NCBI GenBank assembly: GCA_046563655.1
Contig: CM102286.1
Location: 992,001-1,056,000 of the forward strand
DNA: 64,000 nt
Source: Yuukianura sp. NJ FZ-2021
Lineage: Eukaryota
Reading direction: 5' to 3'
Position 1 is the stretch's first letter, and every line of letters starts with the position of its first letter. Made by a program: the position numbers and the translations under genes. Below, piece by piece: positions 3,764-61,101 of the stretch. Below the pieces are notes generated by a model. That model had not been told where the DNA came from. It made no database searches and worked only from the letters and a program-made list of their open reading frames with translations.

Positions 3764-4530
3764 TATGAAAAATATGATGTCAAATGCTGAAAAAGTTTAT
3801 TTCAAAATTAAATTTTTGACTCAGTCCTTACACTATCACACTCACTAAAAGGTTTTAGCAAGAGTGTGAAATTTGCAAGTCATCTGGTGATGTGTTCAAT
3901 TCTAATTTTATCTTTTCAAGTTTTCCGGCAGAATCACGTCATCCTTCACCAAAAGTGATCGATACTTGTGTAATCTTATCATGCAACGCCGCATTGGGCA
4001 CCACGTAAACAAAATGTACTTTGGTTTACTAATGTAACTTCGAACTCTGCTGAAGATTTTAATTTGTAAACGTAATTCTGCAAAATTCAAAAATGTCTTA
4101 GAACATTTAATTGTTGCTAATTTTTCAAACTTTTTACTTAAATTACGTCCATGACAAAATTTTCTTTCAGTTTCAGTTTTCAAAGCAGAATGTGACAATA
4201 TGCATCCAATCAAGAAGATTTTAATCACGCGGACTAAAATTTCAAGTAGCTATACAATATCTTTCAAGGCCAATTGCAGAATCGCCATTGTTTTAAGTTT
4301 CAACACGTATGTCTCGTCCTTTCGGCTCACAAAAACTGGACAGTGTACCAAGGCCACTTCAATATAAAATGACACATGAAGATGTCAAAATTATTCATGT
4401 ATTCACATCATTTTCAAAATTCTGTTGGTTTAGAGCTCATAAACCACAACAAAAAACAAAAAATCAGTTTAATTTCGAAAAATTCAAAATTTTAGACATA
4501 CTTGCTCTGAATTCTTATTAACTGCATAAG

Positions 4531-6498
4531 ATGTATCTAGAAAAAATACTTTTTTGTTTAGTCCTAACGTTTTTAAAGTTCCAAAATACAGAAACTGCCA
4601 ATATTTTATTTTACCATGCAGTTTCTTCTTATTCTCACCGTGTCGCTGTGTGGCCATGGGTTGAAGCTTTGGCTGCGCATGGGCATAACGTCACTTTTCT
4701 GCAACCATTTCCCCCGAAAAATCCGAATCCAAAAGTAACCGAATTTTTTCCCAAGGGATTGACCGATGTTTGGTCATTCCAGGACTCTTCTGGACGGAAA
4801 ATTAGTGACAGTGGATTTCTAGAAAAACGACTTCAAGAAGGACAATGGGCCTTTCTTACAGCACTTTTTCAATATCCAGTGGTCGGATATCGATCATGTG
4901 AAGAAATTTTGTCACATCCAGAAGGACTTGAATTTGTTGACTCGAATACATTTGACCTAGTTGTGATTGACTTTTTGTTCAACGAATGTGCTTATGGACT
5001 TGCACATAAATGGGGAGCCAAAACGATTTTGTACTACTCAAATGATCCCGCAGGATCATTTTTACCGGAAGCATTGGGATTTCAAGGCACAGACAATCTA
5101 GATTTCTCTTGGAATTTTGGTTCTGAAACAATCGTTCAAAAAGTGGTGTTGTTTTTTATGAATACGGTGTTTACTTTATTCAGTTGTTTTGGTCATGTAC
5201 TAAAAGTATGGCATTACTATCCCAAAATGGACACATTAATGCGGAACAAACTCAACATGCCTGAAATGCCATCTTTAGCAGAACTTGTACCGAGAACTAA
5301 TTTGGTGTTTTACAATGGCCATTTTACCGAATCGGACGTCAGAACGTTCCCGCCACTGTTTGTTCCCGGTAAAATTCGAAAAAAAAATTGAATTAAAATT
5401 TTATTTGAGTTCAAACATTGCTGAAAATTAAAGAAAAACACGTTTTTCTCATTCGATTTTAGTTCCAGCGATGCACGTCTGGAATAGTGGTAAACAAAAT
5501 TCGTCCAAACCGCTTCCCAAGGTAGGAAATTTTTTGTGTTTACAATTGACTTTTTAAAACTATTTTGAATTGTTTAAAAAAATCTAGCGAATCTTTGTAC
5601 AAAAAAATTTCTGTGTGAAGGACATGGCGAAATTTATTGATGAGAGTGGGGACGATGGATTCATTTACGTCAGTTTTGGAAGCCTGGCGGACATCAACGG
5701 AGCTCCGCGTGAATTCAAAGACATTTTTCTTCGCGCTTTTGAAAAAAGCAAGACGCGGTTTGTTTGGAAAATTGAAGGTGACATTACAAAAGAAATGCCC
5801 AGTAACGTATTCACTGCTCCTTGGATGCCTCAGGGAGATATCCTAGGTAACATTTTAAATTTTACTCATTTTTTTTTTAAATTTTTTAATAAAACTTTTT
5901 TTTTATACAGCTTCTAAAAAGTGCAAAGCGTTCATCAGTCACGGCGGACTGCTGGGTACGCAGGAGGCTGTGATGCATGGCGTACCGATGATCGTTCTTC
6001 CGATTTTCGGTGAACAAGATTTCAACGCAGCCAGAATTCACACTGGAGGCAGAGGAATTGCCCTGGAAGTGAGCACACTCACAGAAAAGCAATTGACAGA
6101 AACCATCCAGGAGATTTTGACAAACAAAAAGTAAAATTTCAGCCAACTTGTGGAAAAGTTATTTCAAAATTTCCAAAATCTTTTTTTTTTCACTTAGGTA
6201 TAAACAGACTACGGAGAAAATTTCTGTGCAGTTGAAAGACCAACAGAACAGTCCAATTGACACTGCCGTGTACTGGACAGAGTATGTCCTTCGTCATGAT
6301 CGCGAAGATTTGGACCGCCTAAGGCCAAAAAAATGGCGTCATTCCTACTGGTTTCAAGTCCAATTGCTTGATGTGTGGATCTTCCTAATTTGTATTTTTC
6401 TAGTTTCTGCTTACACTACTTTTCGAATTTCGAAATTCATTTTAGCCTCAGTGTTTGTCAAGAAGAATACTAGTAATCAAAAATTGAAAACTAACTAA
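4531..6498 (+). CDS. UDP-glycosyltransferase, copy 1 (5 exons)
   Basis: Signal peptide, SYSH motif, FIYVSFGS, UGT signature WMPQ..FISHGGL.G.QEA..GVP..PIFGEQ..NA, AVYWTEYVLRH, C-terminal TM helix and KLKTN tail. Confidence 0.95.
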
Positions 6499-6896
6499 AA
6501 CAAAATAAAACAAAATTTTGTGTGTGTAACTAGCATAATATCATATCATCGGCATTGAACCAATGCAGACTAAGTAAGCGTGTAGTACAAAGTGTGAATA
6601 ATGCTCGTTCTCAGCAAACAGTTTTTTTTTTCAAAAAATAACTCCCTGATAAAAAAAAAACTATTTCAAAACTGTAAATTTTTTGTGCAGATAAAAATGA
6701 AGTGGACACTTTTTTCAAGGTTTCGGAACAAAAAAGTTGTGATTTTATGCAATTGCGTTACACAGTTTTAAATAAAACTTTGGAGAGTAAACCATACCCA
6801 CAGAAAACTAAAACTTAACTTCAGTTGTTTAAATTTAACTTTAGCTAAAATTAACGTTAGTCAGCTATCCTTTAAATTTTAATGTAAAGCACCAAA

Positions 6897-8821
6897 ATGT
6901 TTCGTCATTTTATTTTATTCTGTTCAATTTTGTTGTTTGTACAATTTTACAGTATAGACTGTTCAAATATTTTGTTTTACTGTGCAGTTTCTTCTTATTC
7001 TCACCGTGTCGCCGTGTGGCCATTGGTTGAAGCTTTAGCTGCGCATGGGCACAACGTCACTTTTCTGCAACCTTATCCTCCGAAAAATCCGAATCCAAAC
7101 GTAACCGAATTTTTTCCAAAGGGTTTGTCTGATGTTTACTCATTCCAGGACTCTTCTGGACGGCAAATCAGTGACAGTGGATTTCTAGAAAAGCGAATTG
7201 AGGGAGGACGGTGGGGAGTGTTCAAAACGGTATTCGATTTTCCAGAACTCGGTTTCAATTCTTGTGCGGAATTTTTGGGGCATCCGGATGGACTGAAATT
7301 TGTGAATTCCAATAAATTTGATTTAGTAGTTGTTGATGCTTTCTACAACGAATGTGCTTTTGGACTTGCATATAAATGGGGAGCCAAAACGATTTTGTAC
7401 TACTCAAATGAACCAGGAGGCTCATTTTCTATTGAACCATTGGGATTTCTCGGTTCAGACAACTTTGACTTTGCATGGACATTTAGCACTGACACGATCG
7501 CTGAAAAGATGACGCTGTTTTTGCAGAACACTATGTTCACTGTAATTTGTATCGTCCTACAATCAATTAAAGTGTGGAGCTACTATCCCAAAATGGAAAA
7601 TCTACTAAGAAATGAGCTCCACATTTTAGAAATGCCATCTATGGCGGAATTGACGACACAAACGAATTTGGTTCTGTTCAACGGTCATTTCAGCCACTCG
7701 GATGCCAGAACTTTTCCACCACTTTTTGTTGCAGGTAAAAACTAAAAAAATCTATTCACATTAAAAAAAAACGAACTTTCTGAACTTTTGTTTAAAATTT
7801 TAGTTCCCGCAATGCACGCTTGGGACAATTCTACGCCCAAGCCGCTTCCAAAGGTAAAATTTCCAGCTTTAACCATTGACTTTACAGCTGTTTTTTTTTT
7901 CAAAATTTTTGTGTTTTTTTTTTAAATTTAATTATAAAATTTTTTTTTGGAAGGACATGGAAAAATTTATTGATGAAAGTCCGGATGGATTCATTTACGT
8001 AAGTTTTGGAAGTCTGGCGGACATCAACAGTGCACCGCGGGAGTTTCAAGAAAAATTTATAGCGGCTTTTGGAAAAAGTAACACGCGGTTTATTTGGAAA
8101 ATTGACGGCGACATCACAAAGAAAATGCCGAGTAACGTCTACACTGCTTCATGGATGCCTCAGAAAGATCTTTTATGTAAAATTTCATAATTCTTTACCC
8201 TGATTTTTTTTTTGAAAAACTGTTTTTTTGTGGTAGCTTCAAAAAAGTGCAAAGCGTTTATCAGTCACGGTGGACTTCTTGGGACACAAGAAGCTGTGAT
8301 GCTTGGCGTTCCGACCATTGTGCTGCCAATGTTCGCTGAACAAGATTTGAACGCCGCGAGAATTCAAGCATCAGGCAGAGGAATCATGATTGAACCAAGT
8401 ACTTTGACGGAACATCAGTTGACCGAAGCCATCCATGAAATGTTGACAAACAAAAAGTAAAATTTCTACCAATTAAAAACAGTCTGAAATTTTTGTAGAG
8501 TTACCATTGTTTTCCTTTAGGTACAAACAAACTGTGGAAAAAATTTCTGCGCAGTTGAAAGACCAACAAAACAGTCCAATTGACACTGCTGTGTACTGGA
8601 CAGAGTATGTCCTTCGTCATGACCGCGAAGATTTGGATCGACTAAGGCCTCGAAAATGGCGTCATTCGTACTGGTTTCAAGCTCAATTGCTTGATGTGTG
8701 GATTTTCTTATTTTTTGTTATCTTTGGTTCTATCTATTTCAGTTTTAGAATTTTGAAATTAATGCTGTCGTTACTTTTTGGACAAAAGAAGCATAAAACT
8801 CTCAAATTAAAAACTAACTAA
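6897..8821 (+). CDS. UDP-glycosyltransferase, copy 2 (tandem paralog)
   Basis: Same motifs and intron positions as copy 1. Confidence 0.95.
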
Positions 8822-9241: not shown

Positions 9242-10616
9242 ATGAATCTTTGGTTTCTAACATTTTGGGTTAATTTTCATGCAAAACTTTGGCTTTCTCC
9301 TTTCGTCTTTACATCAGAATTTCCACCGGTCATAACGACCGTATCTTATACTGGAAAATGGGGCATTGCAAGATCCTACTTGGAAAATTTTTGCAAAATT
9401 TTGGCAGGGGCTCAACTCGTATTTCTTATAATTCGTTTCATTCAATATCTGCTAGGGTCATTGACATTACAAGAACAAGACACGACGGATCTGGCTACAT
9501 CCATCATTAACCTACTGTTGTACTACTTGACAAAACTAATGTTTTTCAAAAAGGAGGAGGATTGGACATACCTGGTAAATTTGTTCCTGCGATTTCAATC
9601 TCAAACTGAACGTAACTGAATTTTATTCTCTTATTAAATACTTTTATTTAATACAAATAATTAATGTTTTGACCTTGTCCGTCTGTCTGCGTCCTGTCTG
9701 TCTGGCGGGCCTTTACCGGCAGTTATGTCGGTGAACTTTCGTTACTGTCATAAATTCTTTTCTAACTAAAACGGAGATTGTTTTTTAAGGTGAATACGGA
9801 CAGCGCTTTCGAAGGATCTGGAAGATTTATAACATTTTTACGTGTTGTGATCGGTCGCTGGACTTTATAAGTCTAGTCATTTTACTTTTGACATATTTTG
9901 AAAATCCGATTCCGAACTATCAGTTGAGCACTTTGGTATTCGGACAACACTATCGGGCAATTGGAATTGCTGAACGACTTATAGATTTTGTAGTCTATGG
10001 ATTTATGCAATGTATGCTCATGCAATTAGACTATATATCGACAATTTACCAACTAGTCACTGCAAAGGCATTCAGACTTCGGCGGCAAACGTAAAAATAA
10101 GATCTAATTTAAATATTTCTTGATTGGATGAAACATGTCTAATTTTTTACTAATTCTAGTCCTCAGACATATGCGGAGTTTGAGCGGGAATACCAACAGA
10201 GGGCTATTCTGAACAGAATCTACAACAATTGGTATCAAAGTCTAGTGATCCCGGTAACTCTTGGACTACAACTTTGTTATTGGATCAGAATCATCTACAT
10301 TGTAGTCCGATCATTTCCCAAAGCCTCATCTACGGACAAACTTGTGTTGTTGTATGCGGCAATCACAAACACAGCACATTGTCTCGCATTTATTCTAATT
10401 CCTGCACAAGTCTACCGTGACAGTTACAATTTACTGGAATTTTGGAAACGAAAAACGGATGGCATAGGAAACGTGTTGATGCGCCGCAGGATTTTACGAA
10501 GTTTAGCACCCTTTGGAGTACGCTGCAGCCACTTCTTTGTAATTCGACCAGAAACGAGAGGAACCTACGTTAGCCTGGCATTTGATAACCTTGTTAACGC
10601 GCTGTTGACGTTCTAG
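9242..10616 (+). CDS. Gustatory-receptor-like multi-TM chemoreceptor, copy 1 (3 exons)
   Basis: Hydrophobic helices. The C-terminus ..ILRSLAPFGVRCSHFFVIRPETRGTYVSLAFDNLVNALLTF is typical of the divergent hexapod GR/OR superfamily. Confidence 0.7.
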
Positions 10617-11370
10617 TTGGTCTGAATACACAAAATTCACTTTTCAATTGTCTCACATTTATCCACACGACGTAAAAATTTACAAAAAATGCATATTTTT
10701 AAAATTTTGGGTTTGGTAGATTCTTAACCTAATTTGGATGTGTAAAGGTCTAAAACACCGTTTAAAACTAACTAAAATTGACAAAAATGTTTTCGCTGCA
10801 AAACTTTTGTGTAGCACTACTAACAACAACGGAATAAATGCAGATACTGCCGCAATCAAGCGTGAATTGATAAATGCAATATTAGCAAGCATGTCAAAAA
10901 TATTTAATAAACAAGCGAAATATTTCAATAAACACAATAAGAATTGAAAAAAGGCGAAGTATTAACGAATTTAACGTGGGAAAATAAATAATTATTTAGT
11001 GACAAAAAGAACCGCAATATTGATTTTGTTAACATTACAGTCATGAGGACTTAAATATTTTTTATGTCTCTGGTTATTAGGGTGAACTTTGAAAATATTG
11101 TCTCAATCTGATCAATTTCTAAGCATGGAGCATTCGAAACAATCAATTATTTAGGTTCTAGAATCTCCGTCCTACATGGTAGACAATGTTATTGTATATT
11201 TTCAAAACGTTCGTTTTGGGTTAGTCTGATTAATTTTTAAATTGAGCGCATTGACCACTTAAATTGGCAGTCAGGGACGTGGAATAGTTGGATGGTTTCC
11301 GCAGTGCTCAATCCTCAATCTTCATCGTTTCAATATCAACTAAAACTCGCGACTCAACTTGTTTAAAAAA

Positions 11371-12938
11371 ATGAATATTTGGTTTCTAACGGCTTGGGTA
11401 AATTTGCACGCAAAACTTTGGATTTCTCCTTTTGTTTTCATATCCGAATTTCCACCAGTCATAGCGAAAGTAACTTATACCAGAAAATGGGATACTGCAA
11501 GATACTTCCTCGCCAGTATTTTCAAAATGCTGGCAATGATCGAATTTGCTTTTGTGGGGTTTCGCTGCATACAGTTTGTCCAAGGTACCTTGACAACCAT
11601 TTCGTCTCCCTAAGAGGTTGTGTACTATTTCCGTTGTTTACCAAAGAAATGAAAATAACAAAAATCTGAGTACCATTGGAACCAATTCAAAAAAATTCGA
11701 CTGCTTAGTACCAATTCGTATGAAAATTTTTAAAAATCGCTTATATTGCTATGGTCAGGATACCCTAAAATGCAACTTAACTTTTTTATCCAATCGAAAA
11801 CATACCTGAGTTAGTACGCAACCTTTTAAGGGAAAATAAATTTACAAATCTTGAAATTTGTCTTAGGATCATTGACCTTGGGGCAACAAGACTCCATGAT
11901 ACTCAATGGCAGCTTCCTTGTCTTCTTGATGCACTTCTTAGTAAAACTTGCGTTTTTCAAGAAGGAAGAAGATTGGGCCTACTTTGTAAATTTGTACCTA
12001 CGATTTCAAGCTGACAGTGAACGTACGTCTATTTTATTATCTTATTAATTTTCTCATAACAGCTACTTATCTTAAACTTTCTACATTGAACTTATCTTTT
12101 AAGGTACCGACCAACACCACTATAAAAGTATATGGAACATATATAACAATATTCTTTGCTGCGCTTGTTCGGTGTTGCACGCAGTTCGAGTTATTATTCT
12201 TTTGACCATGCTCGAAAGACCAATACCAAAGTATGACATGAGCACTTGGGTATTCGGACAACATTTGTGGTGGATTGGAATAGCTGAACGACTTATATAT
12301 CAAGCACTCGACGTCTATTGCGTATGTATACTCGTGCAAGTAGATTTCATTGCAAAAACTTACGAACTGACAACCGGAAAGGCATGCAGGCTCCATCTAC
12401 TCACGTAAAAATATTTACATAACAATTTGCATAGCATCCAAATATTTTTGACATGCTATATGTTTTGAATTGTAGTAACCAGTCAGACGAGGAATTTGAG
12501 CGGGAATACCACCAGAGGGCTATTCTGAACAGGATGTTCAACAACTGGTGTGAAACTCATGTGGTCGCTGCAACTCTTGTACTGCACCATGTTATCTGGG
12601 TCAGGCGGATCTACGTAGCAGTTCGATGGTTGTCCAAAGTCAAAACTCCAGAGAAAATTGTACTGTGTTTTACTGTCTTTTTATATACCGTTATTGGTGT
12701 GGCAATTTGTGCAATCGCTGCACAAGTCTACCGTGACAGTTCGAATTTACTGGAATTTTGGAAAAGAAAAATCGAGGGTGAAAGAGAAAACTTGCTCATG
12801 CGTCACAGGATGTTGCGCAGTTTGGCGCCACTTGGAATTCGCTGCGGCAATTTTTTTGTAATTCAGCCAGAAACGAGAGTAACCTACGTTCGTCTGGCAT
12901 TTGACAACGTTGTTAACGCTCTGGTTAGTCTGCCGTAG
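11371..12938 (+). CDS. Gustatory-receptor-like chemoreceptor, copy 2 (4 exons; extra intron 11585-11866)
   Basis: Paralog of copy 1. The frame is restored by the GT..AG intron 11585-11866. Confidence 0.7.
11581..11853. mobile_element. hAT-like MITE (CAAGGT..ACCTTG family) forming an intron in GR copy 2
   Basis: Ends CAAGGTACCTTGACAAC and ACAAATCTTG. Flanked by CAGTTTGTC/AAATTTGTC. Internal similarity to copies at 50255 and 59984. Confidence 0.8.
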
Positions 12939-12959
12939 TAAACCATTTTTGCAACCAAT

Positions 12960-13085
12960 TTGCGTTGTGTTATGCGGCAATCACAAACACAGCACATTTT
13001 AATTGGATCAGAAACGAGAGGAGCCTACGATAGCCTGGCATTTGAAAGCCTTGTTACCGCGCTGTTGACGTTCTAGTTGGTCTGC
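12960..13085 (+). pseudogene. Deleted relic of the GR copy-1 3' end
   Basis: tatgcggcaatcacaaacacagcacatt and cagaaacgagagg...gacgttctagttggtctg match about 10350-10380 and 10548-10624. Confidence 0.75.
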
Positions 13086-14860
13086 CATCAAACACTAAAC
13101 ACATTTTTCGATTGTCTTACCCGCACCACTTAAAACCTCGCTTTTCGAATTTTGAAACTCATGTGGTCAATACTTTTTGGACAAAAGAAGCATAAAACTC
13201 CAAAATTAAAAATTAACTAAATTTGACTACAAATGTTTTGTCTCAAAAACTTTTTTGTCTAACTACAACGGAATAAATGTTGTTGCTGCTGCAGTACACG
13301 TTTACGTTTCCAATTTTTTTTACGAGGTCTTTTTAAATCGATCAAATGTTTTTAAGTAAACATCGAAGTGGTTTGTTGTCTTAATCTGATCAATTTTTTA
13401 CACATGACGCATTCGATATAGTTGGACTATGTTCTTGTTTACATTCAAAACATATTTCAACTCAAATTGCCAATTGGAGTGATGTATGCACTCGCTTCTA
13501 TACAATCTTCGATTTAGTTTCAACCATAACTAGGAAGACAATTTTTGTTGCTCTTTAAAAAACTGAAGTTTAAAAAATGAATATTTGGTTTTTAACATCT
13601 TGGGTCAATTTGCATGCAAACCTTTGGCTTTCTCCTTTTGTGTTCACATCAGAATTTCCACCAGTGATGGCAACAGTATCTTATAATGGAAAATGGGGCA
13701 TTGCAAGGCAATACCTAGAAAACATTTTCAAAATTCTGGCAGTGACCGAATTTGCATTTGTGGGGCTTCGATACATGCAATATTTGCTCGGATCATTGAC
13801 CTTGGAAACGCAAGATTCGTTGTTGCTTACTGCCAACATCCTTAGCCTGCTCATATACTTCTTGATAAACATTGCGTTTTTCAAGAAAGAGGAAGATTGG
13901 GCCTACTTTGTGAATTTGTTCTTACGATTTCAATCTGAGAGTGAACGTACGTGTGTTTTGATACTTTCAGTTAATTGCGATTATTTTAATTGAATGAAAT
14001 TGAGTTTTTTTTTCTAAGGCGCATATGGAGGACACCACTTTCGAAGAATATGGAAGTTGTATAACAATATTTATTGCTACTTTTCCGTGTCGACCCACGT
14101 AAATGTATTTACTGTTCCACTGTTGGCAATATTCGGAAAACCAATACCAAAGTTTCAGTTGAGCACTTTGATGTTCGGACAACAATTGCGTGGAATCGGA
14201 ATCGCCGAACAACTTTTCAATTTTGCAGTCATTGCGGTGGCCAAGGGTCTACTTGTACATCTAAGTTATATTTCAGGAATTTACCAACTGACTACTCCAA
14301 AGACGTGCAGATTGATGCTACAAACGTAAAAAAAAGTTGACTAAAATGGAAACACGATGACGATTCATAAATGTAGTTTCTTTTTAATTGTAGCGACCAA
14401 TCATATGCGGAGTTTGAGCGGGAATACCAACAGAGGGCTATTCTAAACAGAATTTACAACAATTGGTATCAAACTGTGGTGATCCCGGCATTTCTTGCAG
14501 TACACCATTTTAAGCCTAATTCCCAATGACTGCATCGGACGGACGGACGCTGCATGCGATTGCAGCGCGGACGTACGTCCGTGCAGTGCGAATTCGGAAG
14601 GTGATTCCCAGTGGCTGCTCCAACGCATGCATTTGCATCGCCCGACGTACGTCGGTGCGATGGTACGATTTTCCGCTGCAACCCGGTTCTCACTGCAATC
14701 GCAACGCTGCACCCAAACAAATAATAACATCTGTTGTTGATTTTTTGACTTTCCGTTTTTGTTTTATTGTTCACTGTTTCACTGTTTTAACTATTCTAAC
14801 TATAAAACAAGTCCCCGAAAATTCTAGAACACATTTTATTTTTAATAACTAACCTAGGCA

Positions 14861-16636
14861 ATGAATCTCAGAAACTACAAAAGGTCAGGTTTAGCAAAGG
14901 TTCTGACGTCACTGGTTCTGAGCAGTTGTCTTGAAGCTCTTGAGAAAGCTCATCGTTCTAGAAGAAGATACTGGATCCGTCCATTTCTTCGAATGAGAAA
15001 GAAGAGAGGAGACTTCTATATTGCAGTAAGTGATTGTACAATAACCTAACATAACCTAACTTACAGATAAATCGAGTCTTAATTGTCATAATTTAAAAAC
15101 GAATGAAATTATGTAGGTCCCGGAAATGATGTCCATGGACCCGCAGTTTTATTTTGAGACCTTTAGATTGACACCACAACGATTTGAACATTTGTTGTCG
15201 CTAGTGGGACCAAAGTTGGTTTTTCGTAGCATACGAGAATCGATTTCCGCGTCCGAGAGACTCCAAATGACTTTGGTGTAATTCCATTATGTATAATGAA
15301 CTTAAAATATAACCTATTTTTCCATCACATTAATATTCTACTCTATTATTTATTAGGTATCTTGCAACCGGTGATCAGCAAAAGTCAATCGCGAAAAATT
15401 ACCGCGTGGGACGAAGCACTCTATGTAAAATTATCCACCAAACATGTCAAGCAATCTACGAAGCCCTGTACGACCAATTTCTAGCTGTACCAAAAATGGA
15501 GAATTGGTTAGACATTGCCAACGGATTCCAGGAAGTCTGGCAATTTCCACACTGTCTCGGAGCAATTGATGGCAAGCACTTTGAAATCCCTGCACCACCA
15601 AACTCTTCCAGTCTGTATAGAAACTACAAGGTAAACATTGTCAAAACATGATTATTATTCTTATAACCTATATAATCAAATCAAACAATGCTAACCTAAA
15701 CATAATGAATATGCTAGGGATACTTTTCTGTTGTGATGCTGGCAACTTGTGATGCCTACTACAACTTCACAACTATAACAGTTGGATCATCTGGATCAGA
15801 AAATGATGCTGGCATTTTCCAAAGAAGTACACTTGGCCGAAAGGTAGTAATTCCATCAGTAAAACCAAAAGGAATTCATGACTAACCTACTTAAAACATT
15901 TGAATGATTCTTAGATACTCGCAAACGATCTAGACCTGCCAGAACCCAAGAATGTCACAGGCACTTCATTTATGATGCCGTACGTTTTTGTAGGAGACGA
16001 AGCGTTTCCTCTGCTCAAACACTTAATGCGCCCGTTTCCTGGAGAGGGATTAAATCTTGAACGTCGTGTTTATAACTACAGGTAAACATTAAGTCTTTCT
16101 GAGAATTTAGAATCCTAACCTATGTATCCAAAACTATTCAATAATTAAACAATTTTTATTCTAAAGGCACAGCAGAGCACGACGTGTAATCGAGAATACA
16201 TTTGGTATTCTCGTTTCAAGGTGGAGGCTTTTGTTGTCACTCATGAATATGCTTCCGGAATATGCAATTGAAGCCATTAAATGCTGCGTAGTACTTCACA
16301 ACTACCTCCGGCATGACTCTTTGTGCAATAGGTTAGGAGCAAAACGTACACAGCTAGTACAAACTTAATTCACAATGGGCTAACTATTTATAAGTATGAT
16401 TTGGTTTAAGTTTATACATACCAAATGGATTTGTGGACACCGAGGATCCAATGACTGGCCGAGTTGTTCCAGGCCGGTGGAGAGAAAATGTTGAAAATCA
16501 AGAAAAACAGCAGCTGGAGAGACAAGGATCCAATAACTACACAATTGAGGCTGCCAAGCTACGTCAACAGTTGCTAACATTTTTCAATGAAATAGGAATT
16601 GTACCTTGGCAATACGAGTTCTCTTGGTATCATTAG
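14861..16636 (+). CDS. Harbinger DDE transposase (HARBI1-like), 7 exons
   Basis: YLATG, FPHCLGAIDGKH, NYKGYFSVVMLA.CDA, GSENDAG, VGDEAFP, SRARRVIENTFGILVSRWR, VLHNY. No stops after splicing. Confidence 0.93.
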
Positions 16637-16752
16637 GTTAGGCTAGAACTGTAAACAGAATTTATTTGATCAGTGAATAAGTCTAACCTATGTGTAGTAC
16701 AGGCGTTATTCCGTTAAAATAGAATTACATATACATATCCGATAACTAGAAT

Positions 16753-17781
16753 TTAAGTTTGTGTAACATAAACAAAATCTGGCACTCTTGACGCCTTGAT
16801 GGATTTAATTAAATCCATCACACCGAACTTCAATGTATCTTGTTCTGTCTCAGTCATTTTTGCCATTTCACTGGAAATGTACACAGCAAACGGGTCAACC
16901 TTTTCGTCGGTGGTTGAAGTTTGAAGCATTTTGGTGCATTTATCGATTACGGTTCCCCATTGTCCGGCTGTGGTTTGTTTTTTTGATCTACCCTATCAAA
17001 TCAAAACACGGAATAGAATTAACAAATCATATGGTTTAATTACACAGTAGGATAGCTTAGGGTGATAACCTAGCATACATTAGGTTAGGCTAGCATTATA
17101 ATTGTTAGATTTTACTCGTACCTTTGCATGCTCGGAGTACCAAACATGTGGGCGCTTAAGTTTCGGCGTCGGAGCATTGTTCAAATCCAATGACTGATTG
17201 GAATCATCCTCTTCCGTATTTTCAATTTGTGATGACGCAGGTGATTCCGGGTCCAGCTCTGAAGCAGTTTCGTCAAATGACCTGTCTTCCGTTCCTTGGC
17301 TGTCATCATTGAAATTGTCAGTTGTACTAGATAAAGGTGTTTAGTTTTTTAAGATAGGTTAGGTTTTAAACTTTTGTAGATTCCATTAGTTTTTTGTTAA
17401 CCGATTACCGTTTTGGGATGTTGTGCTCCGCAAGAAACATCAGAGACTCGTACCATTTCCAAATAATTGGAATCCCATCCAGCCCGTCACCACTTTTACC
17501 TCCTTTGCCTCTGTATTTGCGGTAGAACGTGTCTCTCAAGCTCCTCCACCGCTTTTGACAGGTCTGAACTAAAAAACCATGAATTTAAAAGCCAATTAGA
17601 TTAATTTAAGCTTGTTAGGTTAGTATTAGTAAATTTAATTACCCGCCGCTCCTGATTCTTCGCTAACTTCGTTCCAGGCTTGACCAATGATTTTCGACTT
17701 TGAATGGTTTTCGTTACCCTTATCATAGATACAAGGCCGAATGTAAACCGCGGTAATTAACTTCTCCTCGAAGTTAGACAT
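16753..17781 (-). CDS. Harbinger Myb/SANT (MADF) DNA-binding protein, 4 exons
   Basis: MSNFEEKLITAVYIRPCIYD..AWNEV..CQKRWRSLRDTF..WKWYESLMFL, then an acidic linker and a helical C-terminus. Confidence 0.88.
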
Positions 17782-19165
17782 TTCAAACTAATAATCTATA
17801 CACGGAGGATTTTAGGTTAGATTAATAAAACTGAATGTTAATTGTACAATCAAACAAGATCAAACTTCACTTTTTAATTAATTAAAATGAAAACAGCATA
17901 GAATCTATATAATTAAATATTTCCCACAGCTGTTTGAAATTTTGAATTTCCGCGACATTTCATGCAGCGACGGACGCAAAAGTTGAGTTTTTTCAACTCA
18001 TGCGATTTTGCGAAAATCGCATGACGGATCGACGTATCCGATTTTCGCATGCGTCGATCGCATTCCGGTTCACAATTGCTGACTGCAAGAAATCGCATGC
18101 GTCAGCGATTTTCGCATGACGCATGCAGTGGACGCAAACCGGTTCTCACACTTTCAATGCGAATTCGCATGCTGCATGCGAATTCGCATGCGATTGCAGT
18201 CATTGGGAATCAGACTTTACCTGGATCAGAGACATCTCCATTTTAGTTCGCTTCTTCTCCAAAGCCTCAGCTGCGGACAATATTGTACGATGTGTTGTCG
18301 TAACTTCGCAGGCAGTAATTGGTGTGGCACTTTGTGCAATTCCTGCTCAAGTCTACCGTGAAAGTTCAAAGTTACTGGAATTTTGGAAAAGGGAAACGGA
18401 TGGCATAGGAAACGTGTTGAATCGCCGAAGGATCTTGCGCAGTTTGGTACCATTTGGAACACATTGCGGCAACTTCTTTGTAATTCAACCAAAGACGAGA
18501 CTAACCTACCTTCGCATGGTATTTGACAACACTGTTTACGTGCTGTTAACATTCTAACTAAAAGTTGGTTTTTCCATAAAACACTTAAATAGTTTTCGAC
18601 GTCGTAGTTTGCAGGGTTGAAAACTGGACCTCGCAAATTGCGAAGTTTTTATTAGAAATAAAAATATTTTAAAGTGAGTCGTCGATAAAGCCGCATAAAT
18701 TTTGCAGTTTTCCTTGAAAAGGAACGACAGTTTTTTTTATTAGAAATTATGATATTAGTTATTAATTAACAAATAGATATTAGTTTATTAATAAATAAAA
18801 AATATTATAAAAAATATAATAATGTAATAATAATAATATGTGAATAATAATCAATCGCTTTTGTCCATATGTGGTGTGATCGGTTCTAGGTGTGTGTGAG
18901 TAAGCGTTTGTCAAACCTGAAAATTGTTGCTTGTTCTGTTTATGTTATGCTAATTAGGACGATTAACGACAGGAAGAGTTCAACTCGCATTGCAGTCGCA
19001 GTCGGAGAGCCAAGCGCCCTTTGTAAGTTCATAAACAGCTGCTTCCAGATTTTTAACGATTAGTTAGAAAGGTTAGTCTTGCAATTACTTAATATTGTAT
19101 CTGCATGGCTTTAATAATGCTGGTAAAAGATTGTTTTTGTAAATTCTAGATACCGTTTGGGGGTC

Positions 19166-30509: not shown

Positions 30510-31726
30510 ATGATTGCAGAAGCGTTTTTCACCACTCCATTGACTAATACAACGACAAAGAGAAAAAGTAAGCAAACCTTCAAAATTTTGGCAACTTATT
30601 CAACAAAAAGCATTAAAAAGTTGTGTATTTAGAAAAGGAAAACGGAAATATCCAGAAAAAACCTGTGCTTGGAGTCGTTGCTTTTGATTTCGGAGAATTA
30701 AGGGATCCAAAATTTGGAATGTTGCGAATTAGTGGCAAGTTTCCGCGAATTTACTCAAAATTTAAACGCGAGACTTTAGCGGAAGAAGATTTGAAGGAAA
30801 TGAGTGCCAAATTGATGAAATGGTTTAATCCGTTTTTCAAATACTATTTTGAAGGAGACGCTCTACAAGAATTAAGTGAAACTGCTTTCCAGTATGCAGC
30901 ATTCATCTATCCACAAGCGGAAATCGGCAGTACTCAACTCACTTTGGCAACAAAACTTTTTTTCTGGATGTGGATTTCGGACAATGTTGTAGAATTGGCA
31001 GTATCCAAGAAAGTTTCATTTGAAACCCTAAATTCCGGATTTCGTCAGATACACAAACTTTTCAAAAATGGCGACACGAAATTTGTTGAAGTCGAAAATT
31101 TCGCGGGATTTCGCGTCCTGTTTGAATCTCTTATTAATTTACGCGCCGAATTTGTGCAAAATGTACCAAATTTTGAAAGTAGAATTGAACATTTTTGTTA
31201 CTATTTTAAGAATTACTCAAATGCTCTACGCTGGTATGCTGTTGACCACATTGACCACAAATACTCGGAAGAAACTTTTTTGAATTTTCGACGCCATGAC
31301 AGTTTTGCACTTGGATCGTGTGAGTTGCTTTGGATTTTGGAAGGAGGTTGTCTTCCTGAAGATATTTTTGGTGCGCCGTCTCTTCGGCGTCTTCTGGAAC
31401 TTGCAAGTTCCTATTTTGTTTATGTTAACGATTTAGTTGGAGTGAAAAAGGAATTGAAAAATGGTGATTTTGATAGTTTTGTGATGTTTAAAGTTATTCA
31501 AAAGGGCAAGTCACTGACTGAAGCCACCGAAGAAGTGGTGGAAGCCATGAGACGTGACCTTACAGAGTACCTGATACTGCGCAGTACTGTTCTTCAAGAG
31601 TTCAACTCTGACATAAGCTTAACAAAATATTTAGAAGTAGTTGACGCAGTTCTAGAAGGAACAGTCAGATTTCATATCAGTTCAAAGCGGTATCACGCCG
31701 TTGGACTTTCACAAGTGACAGAATGA
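30510..31726 (+). CDS. Microbial-type class I terpene synthase (short 5' exon 30510-30567 plus a long exon from 30633)
   Basis: Asp-rich motif variant SDNVVE, FRRHDS sensor Arg, NSE-like NDLVGVKKE and C-terminal SKRY, in the correct spacing within ~370 aa. Confidence 0.85.
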
Positions 31727-32297: not shown

Positions 32298-33561
32298 TTA
32301 GCGAAATGAGAGGAGAACGTTGATCAAATTTCCAAGGACGACGTCAAAGGTCACAAGCAGAGTTCCGGGGTCAACAAAATAAAATCCACCAATGTGGATC
32401 CGAATGTCACGAACTGGATTCAAAATTGACTTTTTCTTATGTACGTCAGGGAGTTCTGGACTATGTTTCAGTTTGAGGAGAATGTCAGCCGCTGTTTCTG
32501 TCAAGATGCTTGAAGCTTTTGTTAACATTGTAATTACAAAGATATTGAAAAAGATGATGGTAGTGGAAACGTAGGCATTCAGAAATCCAATTTTAGAGTA
32601 AAATAAAAGTGTAAGAGCAGAGAGCATGATGATTGTGATTTGGGCTAAAGTGATTCCAACTGGTAAGAAAATTTTCGAAAACGCTACGCTGTACATGACG
32701 TTCATGTATCTCAAACTCTTGTAGAGCTGCAATGTTTGGTCAAAATTTATCTTTCCCGCATCAAATTTTTTCCTAAAGAGAAAAAAAATTTCTTCAGAAA
32801 CTTTTTGTGGCAAAATTTTTTTGGAAATTTTTTTTGCAACTTACAATAAATTTTTGAGCCAGAGACAAGTGCTAATGAGGTAGAGTAAGTTCAGAGCCAC
32901 AAAATACGTAAAAGTGCGCCAATTCCAAAAAATCCACCAAAATGTAAAAACGGAATAAAAGTGTCGTAGTGGCGTCATGCCAAAGATGTAAATAAATCCA
33001 TTGACCTGTAGCAAGTCCATGGCCCACACTATGCTTGGTTAGTACAATTGTACAAAATTTGTTGTAATGTTTGTACAAAATTGTACAATTGTACCTAACA
33101 ATTGTACAAAAGACCGTGGTCATGTCCATGACCATCATGAGGAAGGTCAAAGGTCGTTGACCTGGCAGTTTGTCCATGTCTACTCCCATCTTTGCTCCCA
33201 ATGAATAGTTCATTGCAAAAAAGTGGCTTAGGAATTGCTCAACTTCGGACTGTTGAGCAAACGAAACGTAGCGAATAAGTGTACACCAATTGATTGCACA
33301 CAAGTACATAACAGGCATCAGGGCTGTCATGACAGTATCAGGATTCAGGAGTCTCCTAAATGTCATGTACCCGTATACAACATTGCACCAACTTCGTGCC
33401 AAAATATCCAAAAATAGTACAATGTTGACCAACATTTTACGGTTAGCAACTTCCGACTCGAATTGGCGTGTTTTTGAATTCCAATTGCTTGGAATCAAGT
33501 ATAATTTTGTATTCCAAGAGATAAATCGACTGAAAGTTTTCAAATTCCGTTCAGACAACAT
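32298..33561 (-). CDS. Gustatory-receptor-like chemoreceptor (3 exons)
   Basis: Multiple TM helices. C-terminus IRIHIGGFYFVDPGTLLVTFDVVLGNLINVLLSF. Introns at 33094-33034 and about 32843-32775. Confidence 0.72.
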
Positions 33562-40021: not shown

Positions 40022-40243
40022 CACGGTTTGTTGATTTTAATTTTCTTTAACAGGTTGGGTATTGCCTCACGTTATTTTGATTTTCCAACTTTTCATTTTC
40101 GGACATCTTAGTCAGTCATAACAATACAGCATTTTTCTTGCATACGAATTGGTACCAATTTTATTTATTTATTTATTTTATTTATTTTGTCAACAAGCGA
40201 AGTAATACCCAACCTGTTAAAGAAAATTAACGTTTAGTTGTCA
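40022..40243. mobile_element. Degenerate copy of the CAAGGT MITE family
   Basis: ggtttgttgattttaattttctttaacaggttgggta ... tacccaacctgttaaagaaaattaa. Confidence 0.75.
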
Positions 40244-40807
40244 ATGTCTATACAAATAGTTGTGCATAAGTGTTCGTTCAGAAGTGAGCGTACATGAGTG
40301 TCAGGGAATCGGAGAAGCACTTATAGCTTCAAGGGGTGTTAAGAGGGCTGTGAAAATATTTACAAGGTTTAACAAGTTACAATGGAGACTATAGGTAAAA
40401 TTTAATGACAAACCGTGTGGACTCCTTTTGAAATTCAGTTTGTAAAAACTTCTTGGAATATGAACAGCCTCAACAAAGAAACAAGTCTGCAGTAATTAAT
40501 TCAATTGTGATCAATTGAATATAGTCAACTCTTAAATTTCCATTTTTTATAATCAACTTTCAAGGCCGGGTCACTTTTCCTGGAAAAATTTCCACTTAAG
40601 ATAAACATCTTGTGCAGAGATCACCTAAGAATCTGCAAAAACTTCTCTAGCACACACGAAATTAAGATTTTATGGTGATCAACATTTACAAAATCTTGTT
40701 GGTTAAGTGTCGTACTTGAAATCAAAAAGTTTACAAAAAGTTGGTGCTCCACTGATACATTTGTTGGTGCCAAATTTTCAACATTTCACATTTAATTTTT
40801 GTGGATA

Positions 40808-50254: not shown

Positions 50255-50526
50255 CAAGGTTCCATGACAACGAGAAATAAATTTTCTTTAAGAGGCTGAG
50301 TAATACCTGGCTTGTTGACAAAATACAAATTAACAAAAAACAAAAATTGGTATCACTTTTAGTACCAATCCAAAAAATTGGTATAAATTCGTATGCAAAA
50401 ATAAAAAAATTCATCTGTTTGTCATGACTAGGAAGCCCTGATATGAAAAGACACTTTTTTTGCTAAATTAAAAAAACACGAGGTATTACCCAACCTTTTA
50501 AAGAAAATCAACGTCAACAAACCTTG
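50255..50526. mobile_element. hAT-like MITE (CAAGGT family)
   Basis: CAAGGTT...AACCTTG ends, 8-bp TSD AGAATTCG/AGACTTCG. Confidence 0.85.
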
Positions 50527-52390
50527 AGACTTCGGGTTTTTCCAGGGTTAGAGGTACAAAAAATAGAAGCCCGGGCGTCTTTTAGAAGCTTTACGGTAAC
50601 CTAACCAGCTCAATGCTGTTGTGCTGCTTGTGTAATACAAAGAACAACCTCAAGGCGGGAATGTTTGACTCTAGAAAGTTGCGGAGAGGCTTTCAAGACA
50701 ATTATTTTGTGCTATGCTGCTTTTCCTTCTTACTTAAGAGCTAAACCCAGCTCTCTCTGGACTTTTAGTACAAAAACTGTTTCCTCTCATAACCAGGTTT
50801 TGTTATTATTATTAAGTTACTTTGGGAGGAGGTTGGAAGAAAGCAGAGGGAGTAACTACTTTCTCTTTGGTTCACTTTATGGTTAGTATTTTGTGCTTTT
50901 GGGAGAGAAAGGAAAGTGAAAGCCGGAATTAGGGAATCCATTTGAGCGGAGAAACAAAGCGAATCTCGTGGGAGATCATCCATTTAACCTCATATTTCCT
51001 GTTTCCCGTCACCATCATAATTCAATCCAAGGCTAAACTTTAACAACTCAACTGAAAAAAAGATTTTTTTTTAGAAGTTGGGCAAATATTTGTGAAATTT
51101 TGTGAATTCCTGGATTCTCTAATTTGATTTTTGAGTAATACGCACAGCGAGTGGTGTAAATAATGAAAATATTTTCTTGGAATTACATAGTACAGCGGAA
51201 TTTGTTTTTGAAAATCAAGCGGAACAAATAAGCAGGGACGTTCAAAATGCTATGTACATTCTGTATTTGTCTGTGTGTTTATCATTTTGGCTTTTGTTAT
51301 GTTGATTTTTTTTCTTTAGAAAACTTCAATTTTGAAAAGAAGCGGAGAAAGTAGTATGTACATTGCATACTTGAAAAAATATTTATGACAATGGAAGCAG
51401 AAAGCCATGGATGTCGTATCCTTTAACATAAACCAACTTTATTCAAGTGAAAGCAAAAGTTGAGCAAAGTTTTGTACGATGCAAAAATTTCCATTTTCGA
51501 TTTTTCTATATAAAAGACTGAAGCTACAGGAAATGACTGATTTTTTTTACGATTTTTGACCTTTGACCTTGGAAAATTCGTCAGATTTTTTTTTAACAAC
51601 ATTGTCTTTTGTTAGGTTATGTTAACCTTTACGTCAGGCTTACGCGTAAAAGGAGCAAACCAATTAAGTTCATCATTGTCCAATAACAAATGAAAGTTGG
51701 TTGACATTTTCGAAACTCAAATGTCAACAAATATTGTTTCTGGATGTTCACAAATTTTGTCCAATTTAATTAACTTCCTGAATCGTACAATGGCAGCTAA
51801 AGTACAACATTGAGTATGTTGGTTTTCGGCCAAAACTGAGCAAAACAGAGACAAAACTTAATTAGTTTTAAGTGTAAACTTAGGTAACAACAACTTATTA
51901 AAAAACTCTTTTTTTAAACTTTTTTTTAGGTCAAACTTCCCAGGCTCGCAATTTCTTCAAAACTTTTTCCCTGTCTGGATTTTTACTTGAAAAACTTCCA
52001 AAAAATTTCAATCATTCCGAGGAACAAGGCGTCTATTTTTTTTTATAAAGCTCCAAAAAAAAGTTTTTGTGGATTTAATGGACAAAAAGTTTAATCAAGT
52101 GAAAAGGACAGACAAAAAACTTAAACTTGACCTGTATATCTTCCAGACAAAGAAAAAGCTTGACTGTCTTTGTGCCACGAGTGATTGACCTTCTTTTTCC
52201 CAAGGCGTCTCGACATTGTCCCATAAAAAGTGCGTAACTGCAGACTTTCACCGAAAAACTCTGGAAAAAGTCGCTTTTGAGCAATTTTAAAAAAAAGTCA
52301 CATGAGCTCACAAAGTACCCAGGTTTTCCAATTTCAAAAACACAGCCACAAATTCTCACAGTGACAAGTGACCTAGAAGCAAAATCCAAA

Positions 52391-58300: not shown

Positions 58301-61101
58301 CTTTTTTTGAACAAAGCGCCTGAAAATATTTATTGGAAGTTCCGAAATTTCTGCACAGCATTGGGCTGTTTTTTGACGGTTTTGTCAGTGTCATAATTTC
58401 CTGGTTTCCTCTTGTTGATACTCGGGCGAAGATGCTCCTTATAGATTTCACTAAGGTGTAAAACATTTGTGTTTTTACTTTTGTAGGTCAAGGTCAAAGG
58501 TCAAGTGAATGCCTAGACTTACATATCGCAGCTCTGACTCCAGTAGCTTGTGAAATTCCAAAGGTCAAGGACGTGTCAAAAGTTGCAAGTCCAAGTTTTC
58601 TTTGCATTTTAGAAAATACTGGAACTCTTCTTGTAAAACCGCGAGTGCAACTGCTGTATTTGAAGTTTCCAAATTTCGGACCCACCCAAATCGGCGTCCT
58701 TTGAACATAGTGTAGTTTCCCAACATCTTTTACAATTGCCGGAATAACTTGAATTGCACTCAGTCCGGATCCGATTACGCCGACGCGTTGACCTTTGAGG
58801 TCAACCGAATCGTCCCACTGAGCTGTGTGCATCATTGGGCCTTGAAAAGCCTCAAACATCTTAGGAATGTTGGGGTTCCACAAATGACCAACGCTGATGA
58901 TTCTGCGAATATAAATTTCAGATTTTCAAAATCCAAAATTCTCATTTTTCCGAAAATTTTACTCACACAAAGTCAAAATCGATAGAGGTGGCTTGTTGCG
59001 TTTCCATGTCTGTGTATGTAACTTTCCAATTTTGAAGTTTTTCGTTCCAAATGGCAGAAGTGACCTGCGTCTTTGTTTTCAAGTGGCTGTACAAGTCATA
59101 CTTTCTTGCAGTACTGCGCATGTACTCAAGTATTTCATGCTGTTTGGCATAGGCATGTGACCATTCTGTTTGAGGACAAATTTCAAATCCAAAGTTCTAA
59201 ATATTTGAATTTTGCTGTTGTTCAATTTTCATAAAAGTAAAATTTTGAAATTTTACCTAAGTTTACTTCAAATGACCAACTGTACATTGCCGACGGGATG
59301 TCACAGGCTGCTCCGGGATAAGTATTTACTAACCAAGCTCCGCCCACATCGCAATTTTTTTCAAAAATTGTGAACGTTTCCAATCCCAACTTCCGTTTAA
59401 GTTGAATTGCAGTCGTGAGACCACCAAATCCAGCTCCAATTATACAAATAGTTGGTGTGCTTCCGTCACTAAAGGTTGCTGCAACCATTGCGCCTCCTCA
59501 GAAGCCAAAATTTTATGATTTTGTTTGAACTAAATTAAACCTTTTTAAAATTTCGCTTTTTCAAAATTTAACACTGTTCACTTTGCCTTCAGTCGTTCAA
59601 ATGGACAAAATTTGCAAGGTGGAGACCAGTTTAATAAGAATTCGAAAACAAAGGGAATTCCACTTCATTTTGTTCCACTGCAATTTTGAATGTTACGTGA
59701 CTGACGTCTATATTCTTCAAAATTATTTACATACGACGCAAGGCAGTTTTTATGGCGTCAGTTTTTGGGAAATTTCATAACAAAAGTTCCGATAAAAAAT
59801 GGAATAAGAAGTTTTTTATTCACAAAAGATTTCCAGGATTGAGAGTTCATAATTTGTGGTTGGGAGCAAAAAACTTGAACTTTAAAGTGGATCACCTTAG
59901 ATTTCAGTTTGTAAAAAAATGATAAGATACATGACACCGCTAATTAAAATCAGATTAATATTAGAAACTACGGCTACAACCAGCAAGGTTTGTTGATTTT
60001 GATTTTCTTTAACAGGTTGGGTAATACCTCATGTTTTTTTTTTTGATTTTGCCAAAAAGTGTCTTTTCATTTCAGGGTAACATAGCCATAAAGAGCGGAG
60101 TTTTTTAAATTTTGAATACGAATTGGTAGCATTTTTTCGGATTGGTAGTTAAGTTGGTACTATTTTTTTTTCCGTCAACAAGCTAGGGAGTACCCAACCT
60201 GTTAAAGAAAATTAACTTTTCGTTGTCGAGGAACCTTGACAACCAGTTTCACACACATAATGATTTATCTCAGACGGAAAATACAGAAAAAGTTCCAAAG
60301 CGTGTAGAAGTTCCCTTTTCTTTTCCTCCAGGAAAACACAGTTTCCAAAAAAATTTTAAACTTGAGAGTATTTCCAGTTTTTCAAACAAAATTTTATTTT
60401 GATTTCAGACGTTGTACAAAGCCAAGAAACGGCATCACAAACTCCTCCAAGGAACAAGTTCAATTCCACGTGGAGCTGGTACCAGCAAAACTATTTTTGT
60501 GGAAGGACCGAGTTCAGTCGTCGCAGAAGACGCATGCGCATGTGACGAAAAGAAATCCAACGGAAGTTTGGTTCATGCTGGAAGGTTGTCTCCTGCCCAA
60601 AGTCAAAAGTCAAGGTCACAAGGTCAATGTCACTCTCCGCCAACTCCATCGTCCCACAACTCACAGGAAGACAAAAGTCACTCCAAAGGGGGCCCAATTT
60701 TGGCAGAATTTCGAAAATTGTCTCATCTTGGCACGCAACCAGGCCCACCTCAGAGAAAAAGTTCGCGCCGAAGTGATCGGACGAGCAAAATGTTGCTGGC
60801 AGTTTTAGCTTTATTTTTAATTACGGAGTTCCCACAAGGAATTATGGCTTTCCTCTCGGGTTTGTACGGCCAAGAATTTTTTAGAAAATGTTATAACTCA
60901 TTCGCAGAGGTGTGGGATATCCTGGCTCTCATTAACTCTGCTATTAATTTCATCCTCTACTGCTTCATGAGCAAGCAATTTAGAACGCAGTTTAGGACAG
61001 TGTTTAAGGTCAACCAATTTCTCTCAGGTCAAAGGTCAAAGGCAGTCCATGTCTCTTGCTTTCAAAGGAAACGGACAGAAGAGATGACCGCAGTAGTGTA
61101 A
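52391..61101 (+). CDS. Class A peptide GPCR, myosuppressin-receptor/dmsr-like (exons 52391-53302 and 60409-61101)
   Basis: [39 protein letters not shown], then a phase-0 splice to [43 protein letters not shown]. Start codon uncertain. Confidence 0.9.
53334..53635. mobile_element. MITE with 15-bp subterminal repeats (ttgctccgaa)
   Basis: Ends gtaccacgccatt / aatggcatggaac. Direct units on the left, inverted units on the right. Confidence 0.6.
57431..59488 (-). CDS. Type I Baeyer-Villiger monooxygenase-like flavoprotein, 6 exons, nested in the GPCR intron
   Basis: [23 protein letters not shown], fingerprint [31 protein letters not shown]. Confidence 0.9.
57808..57925. repeat. Small inverted-repeat element in the last BVMO intron
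   Basis: cgaaaaccataagcgcgaatcagccaagttggcaaca pairs with tgttgccaagttggcgattcgcggttattgttttcg. Confidence 0.7.
59984..60238. mobile_element. hAT-like MITE (CAAGGT family)
   Basis: CAAGGTT...AACCTTG ends, perfect 8-bp TSD ACAACCAG. Confidence 0.88.

Follow-up and report, generated by a model that had tools for sequence, protein, structure and literature searches.

A hAT-like miniature transposon that probably forms an in-frame GT-AG intron in one of three tandem receptor-like genes

Introduction

Has the miniature transposon that interrupts exon 1 of the middle one of three tandem receptor-like genes become an intron, or has it disrupted the gene? There is ample documentation of transposon-driven intron gain, chiefly from aquatic protists, algae and fungi and from a few animals. 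To our knowledge, single, datable cases are scarce in terrestrial arthropods. The locus lies in a stretch of 64,000 nucleotides, the whole of which was analyzed and is called the window below. It is AT-rich animal DNA (GC 34-42%), and Piwi, sarcoglycan, an Srw-type GPCR and a microbial-type terpene synthase are among its genes. The array provides a clean before/after comparison, as two paralogs are without the insert and one carries it, and at least two further diverged insert-bearing versions allow post-insertion change to be measured. Overall, the insert is probably a fixed, transposon-derived, working GT-AG intron; splicing is here deduced from genomic DNA.

Results

Three tandem paralogs with a common exon structure

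Based on tblastn, the first exons of the three tandem paralogs start at 9242, 11371 and 13577, all on the + strand. Copy 1 (9242..10616, +) is intact, with three exons encoding 375 aa, and has no insert at the homologous site. Copy 3 (13577..18557, +) likewise has no insert at that site, and carries a Harbinger-type insertion that divides exon 3. In copy 2 an open frame begins at ATG 11371, and exon 1a, from the ATG to the proposed donor (11371..11584, +), shares 79-82% nucleotide identity with the beginnings of copies 1 and 3. Exon 1b (11867..12022, +) is followed by exon 2 (12104..12404, +), whose boundaries are conserved in 3/3 paralogs, and by exon 3 (12476..12938, +), which includes the stop codon. 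Once 11585-11866 is removed, copy 2 encodes 377 residues with a start codon. Its identity to the window's own paralogs is only 69-82%.

Two ordinary GT-AG introns occupy identical positions in all three paralogs; in copy 2 they flank exon 2 at 12023-12103 and 12405-12475 (+). Their donors read GAAC/GTAACT or GAAC/GTACGT, and AAC or CAC/GTAAAA (slashes mark splice junctions), and their acceptors TTTAAG/G, TCTAAG/G, TTCTAG/T and TTGTAG/. All of the paralogs' ordinary introns (6/6) begin with GTA and end with AAG or TAG.

Directly after copy 2, at 12942-13084, lies a short remnant of another paralog that is 89-91% identical to pieces of the last exon of copy 1 (10336-10380 and 10537-10624). It points to birth-and-death turnover among the tandem genes. 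Upstream of the array, two further tandem paralogous genes (4522-6498 and 6888-8821, +) have similar first exons of 285-289 aa and similar last exons. Their first exon has no Pfam match, and their motif GHNVTFL presumably resembles that of UDP-glycosyltransferases. Low-complexity repeats at 196-774 leave several frames open on each strand (NPAAN-AM-type on the - strand and SRIHR-type on the + strand).

Identity of the receptor-like genes

The sequence-only reading that first drew attention to this locus had labelled the genes 'GR'. Domain searches did not bear this out: no Pfam 7tm_7 match was obtained in any exon piece (E up to 1, or 0.01), a search of single pieces that leaves room for a full-length match, and the language-model leads are sub-threshold. 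The nearest language-model neighbours are unnamed arthropod clusters (0.96-0.97), and the nearest named clusters, which are partly 7tm_7 (16% and 40% of members) or Trehalose_recp, reach 0.89 and 0.86, below the lead line of 0.9. A homologous-protein search with exon 3 in large protein libraries returned no match, and a profile of four exon-3 pieces had 0 matches to PDB sequences. AlphaFold modelled exon 3 alone with a pLDDT of 57, and Foldseek found no match to it at E 0.001 or better. The sole match of copy 3 exon 1, a bacterial FG-GAP repeat protein, was rejected as spurious, as it covers only a 23-residue repeat.

Hydropathy shows about six clear segments and a weaker C-terminal one, and the C-terminus reads TYVRLAFDN, with the TY but without QF. 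We take the hallmark of arthropod gustatory receptors to be seven membrane helices, the last of them at the extreme C-terminus with a TYxxxxxQF motif. The hydropathy profile and the C-terminal TY...F helix would fit a seven-helix chemoreceptor-like channel, and 'GR-like' seems a reasonable label for the three paralogs. Elsewhere in the window, a single-exon ORF of a microbial-type terpene synthase (30617-31726, +; Pfam Terpene_syn_C_2, E 9e-18) is adjoined by a distant relative of the receptor-like family (32298-33564, -) whose C-terminus aligns with the C-termini of copies 1-3.

The interruption of copy 3 is of another kind. A PIF/Harbinger-type element of 3707 nt (14513-18219), with a TTA duplication and inverted ends AGYCTRATTCCCAATGACTGC, splits exon 3 and contains a DDE_Tnp_4 match at 16165-16368. 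With the element removed, copy 3 has an intact 377-codon frame, and the Harbinger insertion thus looks recent.

A miniature element in exon 1 of copy 2

At the site in question copies 1 and 3 read through uninterrupted (IQYLLGSLTL and MQYLLGSLTL, respectively), as had been stated from the sequence alone. The description of copy 2 held as well: its frame runs ...ATA CAG TTT GTC and then CAAG/GTACCT, where the insert begins, and without splicing it meets an in-frame stop at 11611-11613. The DNA added to exon 1 amounts to 282 nt (11581-11862), a 274-nt element plus an 8-nt target repeat. The element (11581..11854, +) is a MITE, or non-autonomous DNA transposon, recognized by BLAST to three window copies and by its TIR pattern match. 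It begins with CAAGGTACCTTGACAAC (CAAGGT), ends in ...ACAAATCTTG plus one extra A at 11854, between the usual CTTG end and the target duplication, and carries stops in the reading frame of copy 2. The insertion site coincides with the end of the first hydrophobic segment, based on hydropathy.

The downstream copy of the target-site duplication (11855..11862, +) reads AATTTGTC, and the upstream copy (11573..11580, +) reads AGTTTGTC in the window, equal in 7/8 places. In diverged contigs the upstream copy is also AATTTGTC, as position 11574 is A there and G in the window, so the original duplication was perfect (8/8). The window's G is a later synonymous change from CAA to CAG. Inside the element, 11608-11627 and 11812-11831 form an inverted repeat of 20 nt that is 85% complementary, and the two segments pair in the predicted RNA fold (z -2.1; 4/100 shuffles fold equally well). 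Such a stem would bring the two ends of the insert together.

The MITE family in the window

Three further family copies had been claimed at 40022, 50255 and 59984, and 8-bp target duplications for the latter two. All are genuine (window searched with the insert by BLAST, E 1e-10 and 1.7e-8), with the last one placed at 59985 in our analysis. The copy at 59985..60237 is flanked by a perfect 8-bp duplication (8/8; ACAACCAG and ACAACCAG) and that at 50255..50527 by one with 7/8 identical places (AGAATTCG and AGACTTCG); in both of them, both ends read CAAGGTT. The copy at 40022..40250 has degraded ends and begins with CACGGTTTG. These three copies are 66-74% identical among themselves, and inverted self-matches were found by BLAST within family copies. 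Terminal inverted repeats of the CAAGGTTYSTYGACAAC type have 5 matches in the window versus 1.6 expected, and 4/100 shuffles reach 5. An 8-bp duplication and short inverted ends fit a hAT-type element.

In read data from run X1, depth reaches up to 4829 in bins of the element interior and is roughly 90-470 in most exon bins; a number of exon bins, to which contigs of other family members mapped as well, go up to 1,000-1,800. The high interior depth indicates that the run contains many more element copies at an identity of at least 85%.

A search of the window for an autonomous partner sharing these ends found none. Two long ORFs of 173 and 535 aa at 37046-39175 (+) look to us like a hAT-type transposase, an assumption drawn from a C-terminal dimerisation-like end. 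Pfam searches of both, the longer at 37568-39175, gave nothing at E 0.01, and the sequence upstream of the pair is free of MITE-family ends; MITE copy 40022 sits 850 nt downstream. Two halves of an Srw/FMRFamide-receptor-type GPCR lie ~7 kb apart at 52238-53323 and 60403-61101 (+). If both halves belong to one gene, the MITE copy at 59985-60237 would be within its long intron.

A candidate splice-site pair with zero length change

The proposed intron (11585..11866, +) is 282 nt long, in phase 1, and reads AAG/GTACCT ... TTTGTCTTAG/GA. We envisage that a hAT-like miniature transposon inserted in exon 1 of the middle paralog, making the 8-bp target duplication, and that the pre-mRNA would be spliced from the GT at 11585, most likely to the host AG at 11865-11866. 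As the sequence-only reading had it, this donor is inside the element terminus, 4 nt in, and this acceptor is host sequence 4 nt past the duplication. Removal of the 282 added bases would swap host TTAG for element CAAG and change Leu71 to Gln in frame (IQFVQGSLTL), also as described before; precise excision of the insert would read IQFVLGSLTL. The proposed intron equals the added DNA in length, and the net length change is zero. Its donor AAG/GTACCT and acceptor TTTGTCTTAG/G resemble those of copy 2's own ordinary introns.

The frequency of such pairs by chance was assessed by simulated insertion of the element (in both orientations) and of the 59985 copy at each of 3276 positions in the three coding sequences. 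We scored in-frame, stop-free GT-AG pairs at most 9 nt from both junctions; strict rules required GTR, YAG and a pyrimidine-rich tract. In-frame pairs arose at 23-35% of simulated sites under loose and 0.6-5% under strict rules, and pairs with zero length change at 4-7% and 0-0.9%, respectively. At the actual site the strict filter leaves a single pair at most 9 nt from the junctions, 11585/11866. In copy 3, used as a negative control, the junctions of the Harbinger insertion have no in-frame GT-AG pair at a distance of up to 9 nt. The locus had been selected by the earlier reader on the GT-AG pair itself. Thus, the in-frame pair at the insert is suggestive and falls short of proof.

These frequencies bear on the reading that copy 2 is a disrupted gene, in which the element is unspliced or too poorly spliced and the message is cut short by the stop at 11611-11613. 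Copy 2, as a member of a receptor array with birth-and-death turnover, would then be a pseudogene or null allele, and its GT-AG pair coincidental. Chance in-frame pairs are common enough under loose rules to agree with this; against it, the observed pair is one that passes the strict rules with zero length change, as 0-0.9% of simulated sites do.

A second in-frame acceptor, TTTTAAG/GG (11824..11830, +), would give a 246-nt intron with the same donor. Splicing to this AG at 11830, alone or alternating with 11866, would retain 36 nt of element end and duplication and so add 12 residues of the GKINLQILKFVL type after the first hydrophobic segment. The product would be in frame, stop-free and 389 aa long, and TTTTAAG/G is the acceptor word of the first ordinary intron in copies 1 and 2. 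On the other hand, 11824-11830 falls within the paired inverted repeat at 11812-11831, where it may be hidden in the predicted fold, and a branch-point-like TTTAC (11841-11845) lies downstream of 11830 and upstream of 11866. The zero-length outcome also fits the paralog alignment better. We consider use of the acceptor at 11830 improbable.

The insert is shared by diverged versions of copy 2

Four DNA contig sets were compared over 11200-13000, based on summary tables that show part of the differences. In a second labelled organism, organism B, which is 2-4% different and has a contig depth of ~28-30, record 11 (11374-11678; 8 other letters, 0 gaps) crosses the 5' junction and record 13 (11684-12037; 14 other letters, 20 gap letters) crosses the 3' junction. 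Since these contigs bridge both junctions, organism B has the same insert at the same site. Some of the 20 gap letters of record 13 may lie in exon 1b. Over 12104-12998 the contigs of organism B have 14 other letters and 8 gap letters, and in place of the first ordinary intron they have 74 unalignable letters.

A version that is ~10% diverged, either a haplotype or a locus, is present in runs X1, X3 and X4. Record 25 of X4, 579 nt long, spans 11397-11977 unbroken and has 63 other letters and 6 gaps (~89% identity). Record 24 spans 12092-13000; its differences amount to 79 other letters and 24 gaps. The diverged version resumes 589 letters later in a copy-3-like gene start, which indicates a collinear array. 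As its contigs are ~89% identical to copy 2, compared with 69-82% for the paralogs, it is a third form of copy 2, be it an allele, a duplicate or a relative, and the insertion is common to both. Judged from these contigs, the insertion predates the ~10% sequence divergence.

No empty-site joint from 11580 to 11863 was found among the contig joints listed. Joints from 11488 or 11501 to 11948 or 11954 were considered as empty alleles and rejected, as they fit the insert-less paralogs instead. A 20-nt degenerate probe for the spliced join and the empty site matched 11 loci in metagenome contigs, all of one unrelated gene. This gene has 50-52% GC and is otherwise without similarity to copy 2, and the match was set aside as due to chance.

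Constraint on copy 2

An old insertion in a broken gene should have been accompanied by decay of the frame. In simulation, a neutral frame of 1131 nt that has undergone 5% change on its own lineage is free of stops with P = 0.09; with indels added at one tenth of the rate of substitution, it is intact with P ~0.001. Given that the insertion is old and yet the 377-codon frame, the start codon and both ordinary introns of copy 2 are intact, neutral survival is unlikely. This argues against a disrupted gene, in which an insert common to the 2-4% and ~10% versions would have to coexist with such a frame.

The located indels between versions, among the 12 of 48 listed, also speak against disruption, as they fall in introns and not in exons: seven are at 12051-12091 in intron 1, others are at 12423 and 12460 in intron 2, and one is at 11364, before the ATG. 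The sole coding-touching indel among those 12 is one of 3 nt at 12935. In X3, record 21 (12119-12385, 267 nt of exon 2) has 0 gaps and differs at 13/267 positions (4.9%), and record 19 (11814-11970, 157 nt, 104 nt of them in exon 1b) has 0 gaps and is 11.5% different. If records 16, 19 and 25 represent one haplotype, the six gap letters of record 25 fall within 11538-11813.

Rates of substitution point the other way. By record subtraction, the part of exon 1a at 11397-11537 is about 11-12% different from the ~10% version. The insert-dominated record 16 is 9.9% different, and only exon 2 is lower. Exon 1 therefore diverges no slower than the insert, which counts against function and is what a disrupted gene would show, the more so as most of the changes alter amino acids (10 of the 13 exon-1 differences listed, each taken singly). 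R38, D41 and F46 in the window replace residues that organism B has in common with copies 1 and 3. Branch dN/dS is highest for copy 2 (0.58, versus 0.37 and 0.46 for the other two paralogs), again in the direction of disruption, and a pseudogene model expects ~0.52 for this branch. The three-paralog dN/dS cannot separate the functional and pseudogene hypotheses.

The neighbourhood is also one in which a dead gene would not be out of place: copy 3 is broken by the 3.7-kb transposon, the fragment at 12942-13084 follows copy 2, and the array evidently tolerates broken members. We regard a disrupted copy 2 as unlikely, though by no means negligible. The protein appears to be evolving fast, and the case for function would be one of frame preservation, not of slow change. 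Taken together, an insert shared between versions and a window gene that is still intact favour a working intron over a dead gene, to judge from the contigs compared here.

Discussion

The claim that a MITE made an intron in copy 2 is upheld in part, namely for the insertion, the in-frame splice-site pair and, beyond the original claim, the sharing of the insert by diverged versions while the window's gene is intact; the acceptor is not unique. In the reading we prefer, an old and fixed insertion in a still-functional gene would now serve as an ordinary phase-1 GT-AG intron. If it is spliced, an ordinary MITE with a near-donor end can become an intron, and the locus is a test case for the maturation of splice signals. 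If the insert is retained in RNA, it marks one more dead receptor gene.

It had also been proposed that both CAAGGT ends provide a donor, so that the family could seed introns genome-wide. This is not supported: elsewhere in the window 5/5 intact termini read CAAG/GTT, and further family copies, seen in the reads as loose ends, have AAGGTC or AAGCTT. U2 donors almost always carry a purine at position +3. Among the window copies, only the one in copy 2 has GTA at the would-be donor, and only 1/4 lies in a coding exon. The GTA would fit a change, either later or by luck, through which this copy became spliceable, and the A at intron position +3 may have arisen, or been selected, as making a usable donor. 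If this reading of +3 is true, it traces a step-wise route from insertion to intron. A wider scenario is that hAT-like MITEs have repeatedly turned into introns in this arthropod-like, probably springtail, genome, within a terrestrial hexapod lineage for which a large survey recorded no introners, and that this locus is an old fixed example with a T or C to A change at +3. We think this doubtful. Multiple copies forming introns, as expected of an introner family, were not found in the window, and the family's consensus end, GTT, is a poor donor.

Several known systems resemble the locus in part. Wessler and colleagues reportedly found that maize Ds/Ds1 elements (hAT) in exons are spliced out via donors in the element end. 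As here, these are non-autonomous hAT-type exon inserts with a terminal donor, and the allele keeps some function. The maize alleles are recent mutants whose splicing is partial and imprecise, whereas the insert in copy 2 is old and shared, and its removal would be in frame.

In the tunicate Fritillaria borealis, MITE-derived introns are described as having paired ends that bring the splice sites together (PMC11282704). The predicted pairing of 11608-11627 with 11812-11831 would be a counterpart in copy 2. The Fritillaria introns differ in having non-canonical ends and an adapted spliceosome, whereas the ends here are canonical GT-AG (PMC11282704).

A literature search on introners and intron gain in Collembola (springtails) returned only unrelated papers, and the words hAT, MITE, springtail and arthropod are absent from a 2025 PNAS introner paper (PMC12130899). 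Introners are DNA transposons of the non-autonomous type that turn into spliceosomal introns when they insert, as set out by Gozashti et al. 2022 (PMC9860276), and a review puts the mechanism in the same light (PMC11282704). The two springtails in Supplementary Table 4 of that paper, Folsomia candida and Orchesella cincta, are scored there as without introners.

Compared with introners as portrayed in that paper, the locus has the same basic features: a short inverted-end element with a target duplication in a coding exon, removable in frame as a GT-AG intron (PMC9860276). Likewise, in the type drawn in its Fig. 2C the element supplies the 5' splice site and a 3' site beyond the element is recruited, and in the family of its Fig. 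2F 4 nt of element are left in the message beside an 8-bp duplication. The acceptor differs, being host sequence 4 nt past the duplication and not the duplication itself as in the introners described there, and the net length change is zero, unlike the +12 nt there (PMC9860276). Also unlike introners, a single copy (1/4 in the window) would act in this way, and the usual end of the family is GTT, a poor donor. By analogy, the mechanism at this locus would be that of introners and of an already known kind, with copy 2 as one more case.
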